DNA from: Dictyostelium discoideum
Taxonomy: Eukaryota
DNA length: 64,000 bases
Direction: 5' to 3'
Assembly (NCBI GenBank): GCA_000004695.1
Contig: CM000150.2
Span: 2,304,001-2,368,000, forward strand
In this document: piece by piece, positions 10,953 through 64,000 of the stretch
Position numbering within the stretch: the first letter of the stretch is position 1
How the letters are laid out: each line of letters begins with the position of its first letter
Notes under the pieces: model-generated
The model's input: only the letters and a program-made list of their open reading frames with translations
What the model was told of the DNA's origin: nothing
The model's database searches: none
Position numbers and translations under genes: made by a program

Positions 10953-13622
10953 GAAATTTAAATAATAATAATAATAATAATAATAATAATCAAAAACCTG
11001 AATGTTTAAATGAATTTCCAATTTCAATTACAGCGAAATCAATTAGTAAAAATTCATTAGATTATGATTATATTGATTTTGTATTAACATTAACAACTCA
11101 ATATATAAGAATTAATTTTCCAAAAGAATGTGTAATGGCATTAATTGCAATCATTGGTACAGTTGTTACAAATACAACCAATTTCTATGAAACTAAGAAA
11201 TCCATTCTTACAGTTGAAGGTTCATTTTATCAAGGTAGAGTTGGTCAATTTACTCAATCAAACACAACAACAACCACTTCACCACGTTATCATCATCAAA
11301 ATCATCATAATCATCAACATAAAAAACAAAATCGTCATAGATTATCAACAAGATTAGAAACTAATGAATTTGATCCAAATGATTTGAAATCGAAAATTAC
11401 AATTAATATACCAAGTTTTGGTTTAACGCTTAGTACAATTGAAAATGATTTAGTTGCATTCCAATTTGAGGATATTTCAATTGATGGTATTTTTCAATTA
11501 CCTTTAATAGATTGTGAATTAAAGGTTAGAGATATGAAATTCATTGATTATACAGGTTCAGATGGTCCATATCCATATATGTTGATTACACAAAAATCAC
11601 AATCACCAATGGTACCAGTTGTAAGAATGCATTTAGTTTGTCATTCAAATAGTAAAACTCAAGAATGGGGTTTTTCACGTTTAATCAATATAGCTGTTGG
11701 TAAAATTCAAATCACTTTTCTATTACAAACTATAAATTTAATACGTTTATTCATTCATGATATTACTTCATCATTAAAAGAATATTGTCCATTCTTATTT
11801 AAAGTTATGGCAATTGTTGATGATAATAATAAACCATCATCAAAAGATAATAATAATAATAATAATAACAATAATAATAGTGACAGTGATAGTGATAGTG
11901 ATACTGATAGTAGTAGTAGTAGTGAAAACAATTATAATAATAATATTGATTTAAATTCACCAGTTGTTGAAATTGTTAAAAAGAAAAAGAATTTAACAAA
12001 TTTAGAGATTGAAATTGATAATAATGTTGTAATAGTTCCAAAGAATAGTAGATCAAGATCAGCAATTAGATTTAGTGTTGGAAGAATATTACTGGGGTTA
12101 GATCAAATGGATCCAACGGTTGATGCAGTATTTGTAAAGATTTATGGTATTAATATGGCATCGAAATATGAAGATTCAATTGATCCAATCATTTCAGATC
12201 CAATTAAAATGGATATTAGATTCATTCATATGTTTGAAACTTCTTTAAAGGATAAATCAATTGAAGTCATTATTAAAATTGATAAAATTCATTTAAAGTT
12301 ATCTCAATACCAATATAATCTATTATACAATACATATCAACAAAATATTAATCAATCAATTGTACCGGCCCCACCCTCAAATTCATACTCCACTGTCGAA
12401 AGACAAGATATTCTATTGGATATTAGGTTAGAGTTTAAAGATTTTGTTGAATTAAATTTAGAAAATGAAAAAACCAATGATTCAAGATTCTTTTCAATGT
12501 TAATTCAACGTCCAATTATTTGTTGTTCAGTTTGGAATAATGGTGATTCAGATTTCTTGATTAAAACAACTGGTATAAGTGTACGTGATAAGAATAAATT
12601 AGTGGTTGTACCAAATGGATTTCAAGAGATGATCAATATTACACCATATGATTTAGATGTACCAATAAAGAATGTTATTAATCAATCGATTAATGAAGTG
12701 TTTTTTGATATAGTTAAAATGAATATCGATGACAATGGTATTGATATTAATATCACAATAGAATATTTAAGTATCTTTTTCGATTTACCTTGGGTTTCGA
12801 AATTAATAACATTCTTATCACCAATTATTGATGCCGATTATATTGGTAATAGTTGTTCAAATTCAACTAATAAATCTTCAACAACAATCAATACTCAGTT
12901 ATTACCCCCACCGCCTCCACCACCACCAATCTCATTAAATAAATCTGGTGTGAATTTAACAAATCAACAACAAAATGAAGAATTTAATTCAAAATTTAAT
13001 AAGGATTGGAAAATATTCTTAAAAGTTGAAGTATCTGCAAAGAATGCAAATATTATGGTTGGTGATTTAAATAGTAAGAATGAATTAGTATTATTAATGA
13101 ATTCATCATTATTGATTAATTCACAATTTGGTACTGAAGGTTTAATGAAAATAATATTAGAATATCAATGTATTAAAGGTTTAATTGGTAATAAAACAAA
13201 AGATCCAATCTATTCAACTAAAAATCCAAGTGCAACTACAATGTCTTTTATTTCAGCTAGCAGTCGTGATTTGGGTGCTCAAAAGAATACAACTCATTAT
13301 CTTTGGAAAGAATTAAAGAAATCTTCAAAATTATTTTTAGAAACTTTTAAAACTAATATTCAAGTTTGTTTAGTACCTGAAGGTAATCAATTCTATTTCT
13401 GTGAATTAAATGATCTATCATTGGTATTCTCTGGTAAAGCATATAAATATCTATTAGATATTTATGAATGTGTTTCTGATATAATCTATGGTGTTAGTAA
13501 ATCAAAAGATATTACAAATAATAATTTAGTTCAAAAACATAGTCGTTCATCTTCAATTAGTACAGATTTACCAATACCAATTAATTTAAGAAGAAGTTCT
13601 ATAATTTCAACAAATTTAATGC

Positions 13623-13699
<77 letters not shown>

Positions 13700-16600
13700 A
13701 ATAATAATAATAATCAAAATAACCAAGCAAGTAGTAATAATAATAATAATAATAATAATAATGTAAGTGGTAATACAATTAATAATAAAAGTGTACCAAA
13801 TGTTCATGATAAAACAAAGAATCAATTTTATCAAATTAAAACTAGATCAGTTGAGATGTTAAGAGCTCATCAAACTAGAGTTACAGAGAAATATCAAGCA
13901 TCATTACCATCAAATGGAAAAATAGCAGAAACAGAAGAGAATGAAAATGGAGATCATACATTTACAAGTGATGATGATGATGATGAAGGTGAAGATGAAG
14001 ATATTGGTGAAGGTTTTTCATTAGATCATAGTACATCAAGTGCACCAACATCAAGATCAAATTATAACAATATAAATGAACCAATGATTGATTTAAAGAG
14101 TAGTAAGAAACAAGATGATTCAAATATGGTTACAAAGATTCAATTCTCACAAATTTCAATATCAATTAAAAATCTGAATATCATTATAATGGATGATCTT
14201 AGTAAACATAAAATGAATACACCCATTTTCAATATGAAATTAAATTATGGATTTATGAAAGCAGTTTTAAAGACAACTAGAATTGAAGTTGAATTCGATT
14301 CAGTATTTCAAATGAACTATTTCAATAATAGAATTGCATATTGGGAACCATTCATTGAACCTTGGTTATTTAAATCAATGATGACATTGGGTAAAGAATT
14401 ATCAATCGATATATACAGTACAGATTTATTGAATATTAATTTCACAATACCATTAATGGATAATATAAGTCTTTTCCTTAGAACTTATAGTAAAGAATTT
14501 GGTTATCCTTTCAATTTAATTTGTGCACCATCCGATAGTAATAACACTGATAATAGTAGTAATAATGGAAAGAAATCTCATTCAAATCGTCATTCTCTAA
14601 TTGGACAAATTAAGAAAATTAAAGAAAAAAAGACAAAAACTTCTTATTCACCATTTTTCATTAGAAATAGAACTGGTTCACGTTTAAGATATAGATTGGA
14701 AACTCAAGACGGTAAACCGGTTGCAGGTGTAAATCATAAAATGGAAGGTTCAACAGTTCGTGTTGTAAATATTGAAAATTATGGACTATTTTTTGAATTG
14801 GATTCTGGTGATTGTTCACCAATTAAATTCTTACCTGATGTTCAAATTAATTTAGAAACATTTAGTCAATTGGTATTGGCAGTCGAGTTATTGGGTGTTG
14901 AAAAATCAATTTCAATTCCATTGGATAAAATTAAAATCTATGACTATCAAGTTTATTTGGATAGTTCAACCAGTACAAAACTTTATGCAAATATTGGTAT
15001 TAAAAATGGTACGAAATTAATCACAATTCAATTCCCTATAGTTTTAAAGAATTTAACATCATTCCCAATCGATATTGCAACGGTAACTAGTGGATTTGGT
15101 GATACTCAAATGCCAAACTATTCAACTACTATTAGAGTTGGTCAAGCAAGAGCACCATTACCAATCAATCGTATGAGAAATGTACAAATTAAATTTAAAC
15201 CATCAGGAGACCAATACAAGTGGAGTACTGAAGCATTGGATGTGAATAATGTTATTGAAGGTGAAGATAAATTCTCTTGTATTTTAAAGAATGGTGAAAA
15301 AATATACTACATCAAAGGTTACATTTTCAAAAAGAATCAATGTTTTATCATTAAACTTTGTCATATGTTAAAGGTTAAGAATCTATTACCTTATCCAATT
15401 CAATTCAAATTGAAATCTCCAATTGAAAATATACCACTATTAAAACGTGAAACTCAAGCAACCGTTCAAGATCAAGAGAAAACTGAAGTTTATGAAATTC
15501 CATTATTGGATAAATTTAAAATTCAAGTTAGAATCGCTGATAAAGATGGTACATTTGAAAAGAGTGAATGGAGTGAAATTCGTTCAATAGTTGAACGTGA
15601 AGATAATAATGAAATTGGTGTTATAACAATATCGGATTCAAATAATCTAATTGTTGATTATCTTCATTTAAATGTAGAATTTGAATCTTATAAAGGTGAA
15701 AAAAAGATAGTTTTCTATAATCAATATTGGATTTTTAACAAGAGTGGTTTGAATTTATACTGTAAGAAATCTTATCATTCAAAAGATTATTCAGAGAGTC
15801 AAACTCATTTTAATCATCCACTTCAACAATTAGATTCATCAAATACAAACACAACCATTAAACCATCGGATGCCATCATTGTAACACCTGATCAATGGTA
15901 TTCTCATCAATTAATAAAAGAATCACCATTGTTATTCTCTTTTAAGAAATTAAAAGATATGGAAAATTCAATAAGAATTAGAGTTGGTGATTCAAAATGG
16001 TCTCATAAGATATCAATCGCTGCAATTGGTGATCGTGGTACAATTGTAATTGATTCATCAGAGAAAAGACATTCACGTTCTTATCATTTAGGTTTATCAG
16101 TAGATTTAGCACCAAATTTAAAAACAAAAATAGTTGTTTTCACACCAAGATTTGTATTTCATAATCTTTTTCCATACACAATTTTAGTTCAACAATGTGG
16201 TGCAAACACTGATTCCACTACTATTAGAATTCCTCCATCATGTTCTGTACCATTTTATTATTTCATTAATAACACTGGTGAGTCTTCAAAACCAACATTG
16301 AAATTCAAAATTGATTATCAAGAATTTGATTGGTCTCCTCCATTTTCAATTCAAACATTTTCAGATTTTACATTTAATGTATTCAATAATAATAATAATG
16401 ATAATGTTGAAAATTATAAACAACCTGATATTCATTGTAATCCATATATTAGAATTAAAACCTGTTTAGAAGTTGCAACCATTTTAGTTATTATATCAGA
16501 ATTAAAAGAACCACCTTATAGAATATTAAATAATACAAAGTATCAACTTTCAATTCAACAGAAAAAAGTTGGTAAAGTTTTAACGGTTGAACCATCTTCA

Positions 16601-19600
16601 TCAATTCCTTATGTTTGGGATTTACCATTGGAAGATCATATTTTAGAGGTATTAGTACATATATCAACCAATCAAAGTGAAAAGGCATCTTATAAGATGG
16701 ATAAAATTAAAACTTTTAGACCAATGGAATTTAATGATGATCATAATCCTGTGGTTATTAAAGCGATTGTTGAAGCTGATGAATCAACTCGTGTATTAAC
16801 ACTCTCTGATAAGACATCATTTCAAATTAGTAAATATGAAGAAGAGAATTTACGTCAATCATTTAGAATTCATTTCACTGGTATCGGTATATCAGTTATT
16901 AATGCAAATCCAACAGAACTTCTTTACGTTTCAATTCATGATATCCTTTGTGAATATTTCATTAGTAGTTTTCTTCAAAAGTTAGAGATGAAAATTACAA
17001 ATATTCAAGTTGATAATCAATTATCAAAAGTTACACCCTATAGTCATCCAGTTTTATTATTTGCAGATAATCTATTACCAAATACACCATTCTTACAAGT
17101 TAGAATAGTAAGATCAATGAAAATGAAAAATATTGATTACTATCATCATGTCTCTTTGAAAATGCAAGAATTAAACATTAAAGTTGAAGAGAAATTCCTT
17201 TACGTATTATTGGATTTCTTTAATAGTTTAGATTTCTCATTTTGGACAGGTAATAAAAAGACAAATACTCTACATAATATGGATATGTTAACTCCAATGT
17301 ATAATGAAGATATTGGTGAAGGATTTATAGATGAAATGGTAGCTCGTGCTCTACCTTCAATCTATGGTAAGAAAATGTATTTCGAATCATTGGATATTGA
17401 ACCAATTAGTATGTTTTTAACATTTGATCTTTCAAATAAGTCTGGTTCAATCGCAAGTTTAGAACAAGCTCCAATGGTAAAAGCATTTAGAAGAATAGGT
17501 TTCGTTATTGTTAGTTTTCAACATGCTCATATATTTTTACATGGTTTCTCATTATCTCATGCATTTGGTTCGAATGAAGAATTGCTTGCACCAATTTTCA
17601 ATCATTACTTTAGTGAAGGTTTATCTGAAGTTTATAAAATATTGGGAGCATTTAATTTGTTTGGTAATCCAGTTGGTTTGGTTACAAACTTTGGAATTGG
17701 TTTTAAAGAATTTTTCGTTAGTATGGGTAAAGGTTTGGTAGGAAATAGTTTTACTGATTCATTTGGTCAAGGTTCAAAAAGTTTAGCAAAACATTCAGTC
17801 TATGGTATATTTGATTCGGGTGCAAAACTAACAGGTTCTGCTGGTAAAGTATTATCAACACTTTCAATGGATCAACGTTATATTCTAGAGAGACAATATA
17901 TCATTGGTGAATCACCAAATACATTTATGCAAGGTTTAATATTGGGTGGTAGAGCTGCAAAAACTGCTGTTTATCGTGGTTTCTCCGGTTTCGTAAAATT
18001 ACCTTATGAAGGTGGTAAAGAAGCAGGACCAAAAGGTGTTGTCAAAGGTATTGGTAAAGGAACTGCTGGTCTTGTGCTAAAACCAATTGCAGCTGGCTTT
18101 GATTTTGCTTCAAAAGTTTCAGAGGGTATTAAAAATTCAACTCAATTAAGTATAGAAAGAAAGAGAATTAGATTTCCACGTCCACTCTTTAGTGATTCAC
18201 CATTAGAAACATATGATTCAGCTGAAAGTTATGGTCACTTTTTATTCCTTACCTATATTATCACCGCTGGTAAACTTAGAAGAATCTCTGCTGATCAAAT
18301 TAATTTACCATTAATGGAAGTGGTTTCAAAGGATGAAAAATATGTTTCTCATTTAATCTATAAAAATAGAAAAACCCTTCTTTTTACCAATAAAAGAATT
18401 ATCTATCTCTATGATACCGATGGTTTTAGAACAAAATTCGATATAAAATATACAAGAATTCATGGTGTTTCTGAAAAATCAGATCATATCGATATAAAAA
18501 TAGATAAAAAACATAAACTATCATTCCTCTACAATGAAAAGAATAAAAAGATAGACTATAGAATCAAGTGTGTTGGTGAAGAGAAATCCTATATCTTTTA
18601 TAGAATAATAGAAATGATTAAAACTTATAAACCATTTGCTGATGAAGAGTTAACTGTCAATGGTTTAAAGGCTGACCCAACTACAATGATTCCAATTCCA
18701 CCACCACCCCCACCACCACTACAACAACAACTATTATATGGTTCAAATATTATTCAACAACAGCCACCAATTCAGTATTTCAATGATGGTAGTAGTAGTA
18801 GTAGTAATTTAACTGGTGGTAGAACAATTCAACCAATTATCTTTACAAATGATGCTGGTCCAATGAGAAATGATTTAAATCCAATACTTGAGAATTTATT
18901 AGCTCAACAACCAAATAAGAATATGGAGATTCCAATTTGGATTTCACAAGGTTTCAATCCACCAAAACCACCAGATACATTAATTCCACAAAGATTTAGA
19001 GACCCAAATTTAATTAATAATAATAACAACTACTATTATCCAAATGGTTCTGGTTATGTTTATTCCCAACCACCACTATATGATCAATATGGTAATCAAA
19101 TTCCACCTCCCCCACCACTTCCATCACATCCATTAGCTATTGATCGTCCAACTACAACTACAACAACAAATACAACCACAACACCCTATCAATCATCTCA
19201 AAATATTCACTCAACACCATACCCAACTGAAACTCCTCAATCTGTTGTATTAAAAGAAGATATTTCAAAAGCAATTCATACTCCATCTGCTAGCTCTTTA
19301 AAGAAATTAAAAACCCCTCATCATTACAATGTAAGATTTGAACCATCAAGTAGTTTAGGCCCTCAAGATTTTGATATTCATACAATTCGTTTACAAAATC
19401 AACAATATCAACACAGTGGAAGTGGAGCACCCCCACCCCCACCAATAATAACCACAACAACTAATTCAACCATTCCACCACCATCTTCTAATATAAATCA
19501 ACGTCAATTACAACATCAATTCTCTAGTAATTCGATAATAGAAACACCAAGATATAAAAGCATGGCTAGACAACAACAATTTCAACAACCACCACCTCCA

Positions 19601-53610: not shown

Positions 53611-56600
53611 ATTAACAATTATAAAAAAAATAAATAAAGATTTTAATGTTGAAGGTTTAAATTTAGATATAAATAATTCAAGTTTGGTAGCTAATGATGG
53701 ATTTAATGGAATTAGTGGTTTATTAAGTATTAGTGGTTTAAAATATCCAATTAAAGAAATTACAGCTAGTTCAAAATATGCCCAAGTAAAGATATTCAAT
53801 AAAATTAATAATTTATATTATATAACTTTCTCTTCACCACCTCCAACTAATATTGGCGTTTGGCTTATAGATTTATTATTTCCAAATAAAAATTTAACTG
53901 TAGCATTAATTAATAATCTTTTTAAGAGTAGGTTTTATTTTATTTTTATTTTTTATAATAAAAAAAAAAAAAAAAAAAAAACTAAAAATTAATAATTTAT
54001 ATAGATACAAATAACTTAATTAGTGATTATAAAGTTTATGAACCATCAATTGACACTTTAAGATTAATGGGTACATTTACTCCACCATGTTTTACATTTA
54101 CATTGAATGACAATACAGAAGCATTACAAAGTTATCCATTCTTTTTTGTAAAATTATTTAATGATGTTACTTTGAATAATCCAGTTATCCAAGTATCATT
54201 TAATAATGTGCCTTATTATCTTGGAGATTTTTCAAGATTCAATTCAATTGATCAATATTCAGGTTCAATTCTCTCAACATTACAAAACCCAATTGCAAAT
54301 ATATCCTATCAATACAATAATAATTATGTTGATGCATTTCCCAAGAGTTTAAATTATTTGTGTAAGTTTTATTTATTTATTTATTTATTTATTTATTTTA
54401 TTTATTTATTATAATAATAATAATAATTATTATTATTGTTCTTATTTTAGATAAAAGTCTTAGTTTAAGTCAAGGTTCTACGGGACCTAGTAAAACCACA
54501 GATAAAATTACACTATTTCGAACTTCATTTCAAAAAATTTCACATACAAAATGTGAATTAAAAAATGATAGAAATATTACAAAATTTTTAGATTTTCCTT
54601 ACGGATATGGTATAGGTAGTACTAATTCATTCATTTTTAATTTTGAATTGTATGATCCGATTCGAACTCTAAGTTATAGGTTAGAAGTTTCTAGAACGAC
54701 TTTTTCTTCAAATTCTCCTCCAAACATAGGTAAGTTTTTATTTTACTAATTATCGATTGATTTTTTTTATTTTTTTGTTTATTTAAATAAATAATTAATT
54801 TTACTAAAAAAAAAAAAAATAGTATCAAGATTAAGATATTTTAAAATTGATAGAATTTTCAATAGATATGTTATGATTAGTGTTGGATTTTATCTTGAAA
54901 GTTCATCAAATTTTGATAATGTTTTAATTGGTAAACCAGGTGATGCAGATAAATTATTTAGATTCAATAGTTATAATGAAACTACTGGTTTATATCAAAT
55001 GTTTTATAAATATTCTAAAAATCCATTCAATAGAGATGATGATCGATTTTCATTTAGAGTTTTAAGTACAAATGGTGCAATAACTACATTTATAGAAGAT
55101 GAAGTGTTTATTGACCAATTTTCAAATAAAGGTACCATTTTATCACCTTCAAATTATTTTACAGAATTTAATAGTGAAGATATTGAAAGTATAACATTTA
55201 AAGAAAATGTTGTAAATACTACATTAAAATCAACATTGAATAGGGTTTATGTTAAATTAAACACCACCAATTCAAAAGTTATACCAAAAGGTGATAGTAT
55301 ACCAATTGGTTTTCAATTTAGAAATGGTAGAAGATTTACTAAAAATCCAGAATCATATCAAGATTTATTAGAAGATTCAGAGGGTAAAAAAGTTTATTAT
55401 TTAGATTGGAATAGTACATCAAAAGCATGGGAATCTGATTTTATAATACCAGCAAATTTAGTAACTGGTCAAATTTATTATTACATTCTAAGTTCAAAAC
55501 AATTACATAATAATTTCTATCAAAAATTCCCTTTAACAGTATTTTCAAATCAATTTGATCTTTTAGGTCCAATTATTTATAATCTTTCAAAATTGACACC
55601 AATTGAATCATCAACTGAAATTGAATTTGGTTGGGATATTAATATTAAAGATGAATTAAATGGTTTTAAAAGTGGTTTTATTGTAGTTAGAGGTGATATT
55701 GATAATTCAATTTATAATTATACATTAACATCAAAAATTGGTAATAATATTCTTATTGAAAATGATGTTATAAAATCAATTGACTTTAAAATAAGAATTA
55801 AAATTTCAAAAGTTCCAACATGTGTAACTCAAACTTATTCTATTACTGAATTGTTTTTACAAGATAATCAAGATCATATTACAAAATTTAATCAAGTTGA
55901 AGAAAAGTCACAACTTTATCCACAATTGAACCCATTTTTATTCTTTTTTAATTCATCTTTAATTATTACAACTAGTATTATATGTCCTTCAGCTGTTCCA
56001 TCACCAAATGATTCAAATGTACCAATAATAACTAGTCTTGCTTTAAAGAATAGTCAATTAATCGAATTTAATAATGATACAAAATCATTTGAAGCATCAA
56101 TAGTATTCACTGTTTATTCTTATTTTGGAATTAAAAATGAACAATATCCAACATGTTATTTAAATTCTGGTGATTTAGATTTTATTTATTCAAAAGCAAT
56201 TCTTGAATCATTTAATGATACATCCTATAATTATCGTTGTGTAATTCCTGTTAGAAGAGGATTTGGTTATCCAAATCAAATATTACTTTCAATCTTTGGT
56301 TTAATTAGTAATATTGGTTTATTTAATGGTTATACATCAGGTGTATTATTTAATACATTTGGTATTGGTATATTTCCAAATAGTGTTTCTGTTCCTACTT
56401 TTTCATTCCCAGTTTTAACAAATGTTTATTATTCAAGTGGATCATTTTGGATTCAAGGTTATAATTTATTCAATTTGAATTTTGTTATGGTTACAAATGT
56501 AACTTCTTCAACAAAAATTTATTATGAAATTGATAACACAATCGATAGTAGATTTCAAAATTTAATAAAATTAAATATTCAATCATTATCAGGAAACTTT

Positions 56601-61531: not shown

Positions 61532-61541
61532 ATGAAAGAAG

Positions 61542-61574
<33 letters not shown>

Positions 61575-62200
61575 AAAATACAACAAAAATAATAAGGAAT
61601 GAAGATGATGATTACGAATTAGTTAAAGTAATAATATTGGGTGATAATAAAACTGGTAAAAGTTCAATTTTAAGAAGATATCATTATAATGAATTTGAAT
61701 TAGGAGTATCATCAATTGGTGTTGATTTCATTAAAAAAGATTATGGTATGGTAAATGGTAAATATTATAAAATTCAAATTTGGGATGTAAATAGTTGTGA
61801 TAGGTTTAGATTATTAACCCACTCCTATTATAAGGGTGCACATGGTTTCATGTTATTATATGATTGTACTAATCAAGAATCATTTAATAATTTACAATTT
61901 TGGATCAATGAAATTATAAATAAATCACCAAATTCAAATAATTCAACAATTGTTATCATTGGTAATAAATGTGATTTAGTTAATGGCATTAAAATTGATC
62001 CAATTAAATCTAAACAATTTTGTGATTCAAAATCAATAACTTCATTTCAAAATGTTTCTGCAAAAGATTCTATCAATATAAATGAACCATTTGAAATTTT
62101 ATTTAGACAAATAATTAAAAAAGGTCATTCACAAACAGTTTCTCCAAAACATGATACATATGAAAATAATAATATTAATAAATCATGTAATATTTTATAA
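61532..62200 (+). CDS. Divergent Rab-family small GTPase (P-loop GDNKTGKSS; switch II WDVNSCDRF instead of WDTAGQE), 222 aa, with an N-terminal poly-Thr run and a C-terminal CNIL prenylation box
   Basis: The overall order G1, switch I (YHYNEFELGVSSIGVDF), WD...., GNKCD (the G4 NKxD motif) and SAK (G5) indicates the Rab/Ras superfamily. The catalytic Gln of switch II is replaced. Confidence 0.65.
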
Positions 62201-62789
62201 TTAAATTTGTTTTCGAAATAAAAATTTTGGGGGAATGATATGGTCATCTATTTTAGTGATGTTATAGTGAAAGTTTTAGAATTTTCTTCTCAACCTCAAG
62301 GAAATTAATTTTTCGGACTTTTACGTATAAAATTTTTAATTTTATCTAATTACTTCGTACTCTAAGTTTACAACTACCTTTTTTTGAATGGAATAACACA
62401 ATTTTTAGTTGCTTCTTCTTGAGATATATCTCATTTTATAAATTCTATTATTAGATATTACAGGTGCCTTTTAAGGTTTTATGGGTTTTTTTTTTTTTTT
62501 TTTTTTTTTTTAAAGTTGGGGGTGTAGAGTGTGTTTAGTGACGTAATATATTGTTGAGGTTTGATGGTAGTGGTACTGTGTGTAGTGGTGAGTTCCAGTG
62601 TTTGCTAAATCTTTCGAGTTGCAGGGAGATGATGTTTTTGAATTTTTTTATTTGTTCGTTGTTTGTTGCTTTTTTTTCTTGTCTGATTAGTTTGTATATG
62701 TTGTTTTTTGTTCTTTCCCAGGCTGCTGTTTGAGTTTTCTTTAGTTCGTGTACTAGTAGTTGTTTTCTTAAGTTTATGAATATGAATAA

Positions 62790-62900
62790 ATTATTTTTTA
62801 AAACTACCTTTTTTTTTTTTTTTTTTTTGAATTGTTTTTTTAAAACTACCTTTTTTTTTTAAAAACTGCTTTTTTTTTTTTTTTTTTTAAAACTACCAAT
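62790..62900. repeat. Tandem array of AAAACT(A/G)CC-T(11-20) units of 3 to 4 copies, ending about 35 bp upstream of the tRNA-Glu gene; one more copy lies at 62371-62386
   Basis: aaaactacc+T20, aaaactacc+T11, aaaaactgc+T20 and aaaactaccaatac read directly from the sequence. Confidence 0.8.
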
Positions 62901-62930
62901 ACTACTATTGGATTGAATTTTTCATACAAT

Positions 62931-63002
62931 TCCTCATTGGTGTAGTCGGTAACACTCTAGTCTTTCACACTGGTACCTCGGGTTCGATTCCCGAATGGGG
63001 AG
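62931..63002 (+). tRNA. tRNA-Glu (anticodon UUC), 72 nt, no encoded CCA, followed by a cttttt Pol III terminator
   Basis: The 5' acceptor arm TCCTCAT pairs with the 3' arm ATGGGGA. D-arm GTGTAGTCGGTAACAC. Anticodon stem CTAGT/ACTGG with loop CTTTCAC, anticodon TTC. T-arm GGGTTCGATTCCCGA carries the B-box consensus GGTTCGANTCC. Discriminator G at 63002. Confidence 0.85.
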
Positions 63003-63033
63003 CTTTTTAATTATTTTCCTAAAAAGATCGCAT

Positions 63034-63058
63034 GTTCGATGCCATGTTCGCATAACCC
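63034..63058 (+). promoter_or_regulatory. Two external-B-box-like motifs (GTTCGATGCC and GTTCGCATAACCC) 32-56 nt downstream of the tRNA, as described for Dictyostelium tRNA genes (ex-B box)
   Basis: They match the B-box core GTTCGA(N)(N)CC, and the position fits the known exB spacing. Confidence 0.4.
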
Positions 63059-63245
63059 GAACACTCCAAACCAATTCCATCATAATAAAAAAAAAAAAAA
63101 AAAAAAAAAAACAAGTAGTAGTAATCATAATATAACCAAAAATATCAACATATAACAATATAAAAATTTAAAAATTTAAAAATCTAAAAATTTAAAAATG
63201 TAATAAAATATAACAATACACCGCTTTTAGGTAAAAAAAAAAAAA

Positions 63246-63303
63246 CGATGCCATGTTCGATGCCATGTTCGATGCCATGTTCGATGCCATGTTCGATACC
63301 CAT
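63246..63303. repeat. Tandem array: 4 perfect copies of the 12-mer cgatgccatgtt plus 1 degenerate copy, preceded by A(12); the 12-mer equals the exB-box sequence at 63038-63049
   Basis: Direct reading: cgatgccatgttcgatgccatgttcgatgccatgttcgatgccatgttcgataccc. Confidence 0.85.
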
Positions 63304-64000
63304 GAAGGATGAAGATAATAAAAACAAAATATATAATACTTAAAAAATTAATTAATTATGATTATTGTGGTTAAATTATAATTCCTTATTAAGAATATTG
63401 AAAACTTAATGTTCATGTAATTTCATTACAAAACTGGGAGTGGCACAAGGATATAAAAAAGCAAAAATTTTACAATTAATTTTTTATTTTTTATTATTTT
63501 TTTATTTTAAAATTTTGAAAGGTTAATTTATTTAAAATTATACATTAGTTTTATTATTAAACATTTCCATTAAAAAAAAATCACCACTTTCTGTAACGGT
63601 ATACTCTAGAAAGACTAATATTTTATTTGTTTATAATTTATATTAGTATTTTATTTATTTATTTATTTATTTTTATATTTATATATCTTTAATAATTTAA
63701 TTTAATTTAATTTTATATAATTTTATTTAATATTTGTTTTATATATTTTATACTAGTTAATACGAGTCGACATAATATACTATAAGAGAATATTTAAAAA
63801 AATATACCAAATTTGTTAAAAATTAATTATTGAAAACACTAAATAAAGAATATATATCGAAACAATTGTTTCTGATTATAATGATATAATACTAAATAAT
63901 AATTATAGTAACGAAAAACTACTGGTTTCTTTACATTTCTAAATCACCATACTCACAATTCAAAAACAATAACGTCAGTATCATCACCATTTCTTAGAAA

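Follow-up and report, generated by a model that had tools for sequence, protein, structure and literature searches.

The ex-B box of Dictyostelium is a second B-box-like motif and is presumed to bind TFIIIC. It is found ~41 bp downstream of most tRNA genes, with GTTCRAnYC as a stricter consensus (PMC3159450). The same side of tRNA genes is used by TRE3, which inserts 40–150 bp downstream of them (PMC5911963), and TRE elements carry an oligo(A) end (PMC5911963; PMC5006619). Here, we describe a tRNA-Glu(UUC) locus on chromosome 1 of D. discoideum AX4, lying in a 64 kb stretch that was analysed in full and is referred to as the window, where an ex-B box forms a 12-bp tandem array that is interrupted by a poly(A)-ended insert. 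We read this insert as the scar of a retrotransposition into an ex-B box that had been amplified locally, and put the probability of this reading at about 0.65. Coordinates refer to the + strand of the window unless given otherwise.

The tRNA-Glu(UUC) gene that an earlier note on this DNA had recognised at 62931 was recovered by ARAGORN (anticodon ttc) at 62931–63003 (+) and by Rfam RF00005 at 62931–63002 with a score of 56.3 bits. Its internal B box, GGTTCGATTCC, was located by motif scan at 62981–62991 (+), and direct reading of the sequence identified a T5 run at 63004–63008 (+) that is likely the Pol III terminator; a T-run was found after each tRNA-Glu copy compared. The alignment of tRNA-Glu copies delimits a conserved ex-B module, AAAGATCGCATGTTCGATGCCAT, at 63023–63045 (+), which ends in the first ex-B unit (GTTCGATGCCAT, 63034–63045, +), 31 nt past the tRNA. 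Across seven aligned tRNA-Glu(UUC) copies from four assemblies, the gene sequence is identical in all seven, and all seven carry the module as AAAG(A/G)TCGCATG(C)GTTCGAT(G/T)(C/T)CAT; the sequence beyond the module differs locus by locus.

The sequence GTTCGATGC at 63034 (+31), past the T-run, supplies the GTTCRANNC core ~30–45 nt 3′ of the tRNA by which an ex-B box is recognised. It had been listed earlier as one of two B-box-like elements at this site, and it fits the motif, but its companion GTTCGCATA at 63046 fails GTTCRANNC and joins 5 nt from the beginning of the following repeat unit to the first bases of the insert. An ex-B-like motif lies 27–40 nt downstream of 10 of the 13 independent tRNA genes in the fetched loci, and none of the 13 has more than one. 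RabT-paralog loci from other genomes (L005, L006 and L007), which are not syntenic with the window, supplied extra control tRNA genes. On the minus strand of L005 at ~11590–11640, an ex-B-like GTTCGGTTT was seen after a tRNA-Ser gene, with an A29 run beginning 7 nt downstream.

The 12-mer GATGCCATGTTC occurs exactly five times in the 64 kb, against 0.08 matches expected: once at the ex-B site (63038–63049) and four times in tandem at 63247–63294. Four perfect tandem copies had been claimed at 63246–63293, and their number and 100% identity held, with the span one base off. TRF delimited the repeat as 63246–63297, with a period of 12, 4.3 copies and 100% matches. The B-box motif GTTCGANNC, with an expectation of 0.45, is matched seven times in the window, and all but one of these matches fall at 62982–63299. 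The sole match outside the tRNA-Glu locus is a lone B-box-like GTTCGAATC at 54659–54667 (−), with no tRNA predicted nearby. From TRF and the motif scan, the remaining array (63246–63303, +) consists of a 9-nt unit tail, three complete GTTCGATGCCAT units (63255–63290) and a variant last unit, GTTCGATACCCAT (63291–63303, +), orthologous by position to the one ex-B box of other lineages. Hairpin-driven slippage was considered as an origin of the array and dropped, since the array folds no better than shuffled sequences (z = +1.8).

The insert (‘X’) occupies 195 bp at 63051–63245 (+), in place of the 63063–63240 given earlier for the intervening segment, and lies between two 14-bp direct repeats, CGATGCCATGTTCG. 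The left copy (63037–63050, +; direct reading, repeat family D4) spans the junction of units 1 and 2, while the right copy (63246–63259, +) follows directly on the poly(A). From its 5′ end, the insert comprises a 36-bp head (63051–63086, +), an internal A25 (63087–63111, +), a 121-bp AT-rich segment (63112–63232, +) and a terminal A13 (63233–63245, +), read directly from the sequence and abutting the right copy; the A-run noted before the array as A(12) is therefore present, as A13. The AT-rich segment contains AATAAA at 63202–63207, the end of which is 25 nt from the poly(A) tail, and its final bases are ..CTTTTAGGT. The insert starts 47 bp past the end of the tRNA and shares its orientation (+), with the poly(A) distal, and the duplicated target starts at +34. 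The insertion point thus lies 34–47 bp after the tRNA and 56–69 bp after the internal B box, at the near edge of the published TRE3 range.

Searches with the insert were uniformly negative. There is no second copy in ~200 kb of Dictyostelium DNA (the 64 kb window plus ~130 kb), its unique parts had no match in JGI metagenomes, and a 34-aa peptide from it had none among 1.84 billion proteins. Small ORFs across the tRNA and the insert had no exact match in the protein collection, and a spurious 74-aa ORF had no homolog there. A permissive Rfam scan returned the tRNA alone, and sequence strings from the insert and the TRE5 fragment occurred in no relevant paper among those searched. Two candidate relationships of the insert head were rejected: its homology to the flank of tRNA-Glu #2 was no better than that of shuffles, and the resemblance of one reading frame (..PNTPNQF..) to the ORF2 C-terminus of the TRE3-like element in L010 scored below background matches.

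We fetched the locus from three other assemblies via cluster members of the neighbouring proteins: L009 (GCA_054883475.1), L008 (GCA_054859355.1) and L010 (GCA_054859385.1). L009 is 99.9% identical over 62200–64000 and has the 12-mer at the same five positions, differing by one substitution at the edge of a T-run (62485) and by one T fewer in a homopolymer run (62809). Because this independent assembly has the same structure, the five-copy layout is not an assembly artefact. L008 and L010 belong to the D. discoideum complex and are divergent, with gene order kept; the EGF-like neighbour protein is 95% identical at the amino acid level in the divergent genomes, and the DNA of RabT1, the upstream neighbour of the tRNA-Glu (ORF 61532–62200; 100% identical to the RabT1 of D. 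discoideum AX4), is ~87% identical between AX4 and L008. In both of these genomes, the syntenic tRNA-Glu beside RabT1 has one ex-B box (..AAAGATCGCATGCGTTCGATTCCATTAAGGTTGAAAATAATG.. in L008 and ..AAAGGTCGCATGTTCGATTCCATAAAGGTTGAAAACACAAAATATATAAAAC.. in L010).

Window 62921–63045 aligns to L008 19154–19279 (88%), and BLAST matched window 63291–63555 to L008 19268–19553 (72.6%, E = 1e-42). Local alignments to L008 from 19260 and to L010 from 11757 begin in the last array unit and continue into the flank, and the unique downstream flank (63304–63555, +) has its ortholog beside tRNA-Glu #1 of the other lineages. The single outgroup ex-B box aligns with both the left ex-B box and the last array unit, so that 63047–63290 is specific to the AX4 lineage, and the insertion and the array are shown to be specific to that lineage. 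Of the loci compared, only the window and the near-identical L009 have the array; it is absent at the two orthologous loci and at five other tRNA-Glu copies. These five, whose comparison the earlier note had suggested, carry the ex-B module and no array, which makes the array locus-specific. The earlier note's proposal that a poly(A)-ended insertion duplicated its target site is supported by the 14-bp repeat, the A13 and the empty site in L008 and L010. The outgroup loci are ~13–27% divergent, and the ancestral unit number in the AX4 lineage can be inferred only indirectly from them. A precise deletion in the other lineages, in place of a gain in AX4, is formally possible. The RabT1 reading frames compared (window 61532–62200, L008 18401–19000 and L010 10001–10642) have products of 222, 199 and 213 aa, respectively; either RabT1 is fast-evolving, or the L008 assembly (labelled D. 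discoideum) and the L010 assembly represent cryptic species.

The features of 63051–63245 that recall TRE3 are its position at 40–150 bp downstream of the tRNA, its tRNA-like orientation with distal poly(A) and the flanking target-site duplication. On structural and positional grounds, the insert shows the hallmarks of a 5′-truncated TRE3-type non-LTR insertion. A TRE3-type origin had been suggested before, and while the position and orientation are those reported for TRE3, the insert has no detectable similarity to the TRE3-like elements compared. Against three such sequences (L010 13011–18406, L005 12532–13034 and L009 23910–24206), nothing beyond A-runs was similar, and all three end in ..TTATATC/TAATATC before the poly(A), unlike the insert. 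We infer that the TRE3 machinery is the most likely agent; the insert itself could be the 3′ end of another TRE3 subfamily, or another poly(A) RNA copied in trans.

The control loci provide elements with which this anatomy can be compared. In L010, an apparently full-length TRE3-like element at ~13011–18406 lies 70 bp after tRNA-Glu #2. Its two overlapping reading frames are ORF1 (391 aa) and ORF2 (1235 aa), the latter with RVT_1 (E = 6e-32). A duplication of ~12 bp, AAAAATTTTTAT, flanks the element, and the 3′ end of the element runs from the ORF2 stop through A24 and 62 bp to A67. A related truncated copy lies downstream of tRNA-Trp in L005, where the 62-bp tail of the L010 element is conserved (12532–12622). 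In L009, a truncated insert of 297 bp lies 52 bp downstream of tRNA-Gln; it has an A17 tail and is accompanied by a duplication of 12 bp, TGAGAAAGGAAA. An internal A-run before the final poly(A), as in the AX4 insert, is also present in the L010 element and in an element at L009 22376–22436, showing that this arrangement occurs in bona fide elements; at the latter position, A15, 18 bp and A25 close a + strand element.

Upstream of the tRNA, TRE5-type fragments with poly(A) ends are stacked in the opposite orientation at 62367–62898 (−; repeat families D8–D11, minus-strand reading). After each of them comes one and the same target repeat of ~9 nt, which reads GGTAGTTTT on the minus strand. On the + strand, the T-runs of the stack (62379–62385, 62486–62511, 62809–62828, 62851–62861 and 62870–62888) are bounded by this ~9-nt repeat in the forms AAAACTACC/ACAACTACC/AAAACTGC at 62370, 62800, 62842, 62862 and 62890. 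The stack looks like the product of repeated TRE5-type insertions into one target 33–41 bp upstream, several of them little beyond a poly(A) tail. Two parts match elements upstream of tRNA-Glu #2 in L008: 62469–62778 is 79% identical to L008 19878–20186, and 62379–62446 is 91% identical to L008 19690–19757. The latter part also matches sequence near tRNA-Ser genes in D. citrinum (L006).

In the AX4 lineage, a second tRNA-Glu(UUC) gene lies inverted 1.3 kb further on, at L009 21053–21125 (−), equivalent to window positions 64297–64369 and hence just outside the window. It is 92% identical to window 62881–63046, including the 5′ flank and the ex-B box, and has a TRE5 stack of its own, in which the target repeat is GTAGTTGTAAA. 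The two tRNA-Glu copies are in direct orientation in the ACTFIW and ACTFIR genomes, so that an inversion or an independent duplication separates the lineages.

When the insert and one copy of the duplication are removed, the sequence reads ..CGCAT (GTTCGATGCCAT)x4 GTTCGATACCCAT GAAGG.., giving five ex-B units against one in the outgroups. The earlier note had proposed that the duplication came first and the amplification second. On that view, the single ex-B box would have been duplicated as the target site of the insertion, and the right copy then amplified to four or five units. This order would account for the amplified units all lying to the right of the insert, it agrees with the single unit at the orthologous loci, and the 100% identity of the units indicates a recent origin. 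It is nonetheless not the most economical, and the reverse order is probable. In the tRNA-Glu alignment, the left copy of the duplication holds the junction GCCAT|GTTCG, which is absent from every single-unit copy; in those, GCCAT or TCCAT is followed by GAAGG-like sequence, GCGAG, GCTAG or GATGA. As the duplicated target spans a unit junction, at least two units existed before the insertion. The left TTCG is otherwise the insert's own 5′ end, identical over 4 nt by chance (1 in 256), and we consider an amplification that followed the insertion unlikely.

The preferred reading, a retrotransposition into units that were already repeated, can be set out as a probable sequence of events, the origin of the first duplicate included. 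The starting point would be the conserved downstream ex-B module of D. discoideum tRNA-Glu(UUC) genes (..GATCGCATGTTCGATGCCAT..), whose 12-bp core GTTCGATGCCAT would have become tandemly repeated at this locus in the AX4 lineage. A gene-conversion or duplication tract of the neighbouring inverted tRNA-Glu that ended inside the ex-B box was probably the source of the first extra copy, and such a tract would set two ex-B units side by side. Several features of the two AX4-lineage copies are relevant here: they are 92% identical over 166 bp (50 bp of 5′ flank, gene and ex-B box), their homology extends to 63046 and no further, a single base beyond unit 1, and the perfect array units equal the ex-B box of the second copy, in which the region reads GATCGCATGTTCGATGCCATG. 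In the last unit, a variant, the resemblance is to the orthologous GTTCGATTCCAT, and the flank that adjoins it is likewise the orthologous one. Further units were probably added by slippage or unequal exchange. Target-primed reverse transcription of an RNA with a poly(A) tail would then have placed a copy in the array, 47 bp past the tRNA and oriented like it, and the result would be the 195-bp 5′-truncated insert with its 14-bp target-site duplication.

Other readings dispense with retrotransposition of the insert, with slippage of the array, or with neutrality. The insert might be filler DNA, captured during double-strand-break repair or unequal ex-B exchange, its A-runs being ordinary AT-rich intergenic sequence. 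The window has a G+C content of only ~20% (~80% A+T) with long A/T runs common, and no homolog of the insert was found in the Dictyostelium DNA and the TRE3-like sequences compared, both of which agree with such an origin. However, a pure A13 exactly abuts the duplicated target with AATAAA ending 25 nt upstream, orientation and distance fit the behaviour of TRE3, and neighbouring tRNA genes carry bona fide elements of identical anatomy, so that capture of filler DNA seems improbable. A similarly small chance attaches to the array being, in place of a slippage product, a series of ‘empty’ target-site duplications left by abortive TRE3 integrations that TFIIIC positioned on the ex-B box. Staggered nicks ~12 bp apart would be filled in without cDNA, each adding one ex-B unit and docking site, and the 195-bp insert would be the one attempt that went part-way. 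Neighbouring TRE3-like insertions have duplications of 12, ~12 and 14 bp, which the 12-bp length of the array unit matches, and on the upstream side of the same tRNA there are four reiterated target repeats with only A-runs between them. In a related proposal, TRE3 would have mobilised non-TRE poly(A) RNAs in trans, and the insert would be their chimeric retro-copy. We know of no description of trans-mobilisation by TRE3.

Selection for the array is the least probable of these readings, and we give it very little credence. Under it, the tandem B boxes would be a functional cluster of TFIIIC sites, acting as an insulator or ETC-like element or enhancing tRNA-Glu transcription. Five sites conforming to GTTCRANNC do lie within 270 bp, in other systems TFIIIC can be recruited by a solo B box (PMC5391098), and from their sequence the array units are putative TFIIIC-binding sites. 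The earlier note had offered an unusual cluster of TFIIIC-binding sites as its alternative. The cluster is, however, not conserved: the orthologous locus in two related genomes and five other tRNA-Glu copies are without it. It has also been broken up by an insertion, and the perfect identity of its units indicates recent neutral expansion, not maintenance. There is thus no sign of selection, and we favour the view that the structure is a strain-lineage-specific scar of ordinary tRNA-targeted retrotransposition and not a conserved regulatory element. The insertion landing in the ex-B box is the only, and indirect, hint of TFIIIC binding there or of ex-B use as a TRE target.

The locus therefore offers a clean natural example of a tRNA-targeted non-LTR insertion inside an ex-B box, together with an empty-site control, and demonstrates that an ex-B box can expand into a short tandem array within one strain lineage. 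Binding of TFIIIC to the array would make this a natural multi-site allele, with which the effect of B-box number on TRE3 targeting or on the chromatin of tRNA genes could be tested. Should the insert prove to be something other than a TRE3 end, this would be a sign that the TRE machinery mobilises other poly(A) RNAs in trans. Otherwise, it is an ordinary scar in a genome in which 61% of tRNA genes carry such elements. The locus is a lineage-specific variant of well-known Dictyostelium tRNA-locus features.

Compared with TRE3 (TRE3-A to -D and their 5′-truncated copies), the insert is alike in its poly(A) end, 12–14-bp duplication, tRNA orientation and position near an ex-B box within the published 40–150 bp, and it shares with the TRE3-like element of L010 an internal A-run before a short AT-rich tail. 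It differs in lacking similarity to the TRE3-like 3′ ends compared, in its terminal motif, in being only 195 bp long with no coding homology, and in lying inside the ex-B box itself, at the very near edge of the insertion range. L1-type processed pseudogenes and template-switch chimeric retrocopies resemble it in having, inside a single duplication, a head-to-tail pair of modules that both end in poly(A), a polyadenylation signal at the canonical distance and 5′ truncation; in contrast to these, no source gene was found, and the internal A-run may be intrinsic to the element. As an ex-B box, the site agrees with those described in Dictyostelium in its position 31 nt after the tRNA, its GTTCRANNC core and the presence of the module at all tRNA-Glu(UUC) copies, and departs from them in having five tandem 12-bp copies at the AX4 locus, where elsewhere there is one. 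The AX4 array units have G (or A) where the stricter consensus GTTCRAnYC has Y, and the ex-B boxes of other tRNA-Glu copies of the same type also depart from that consensus at this position.
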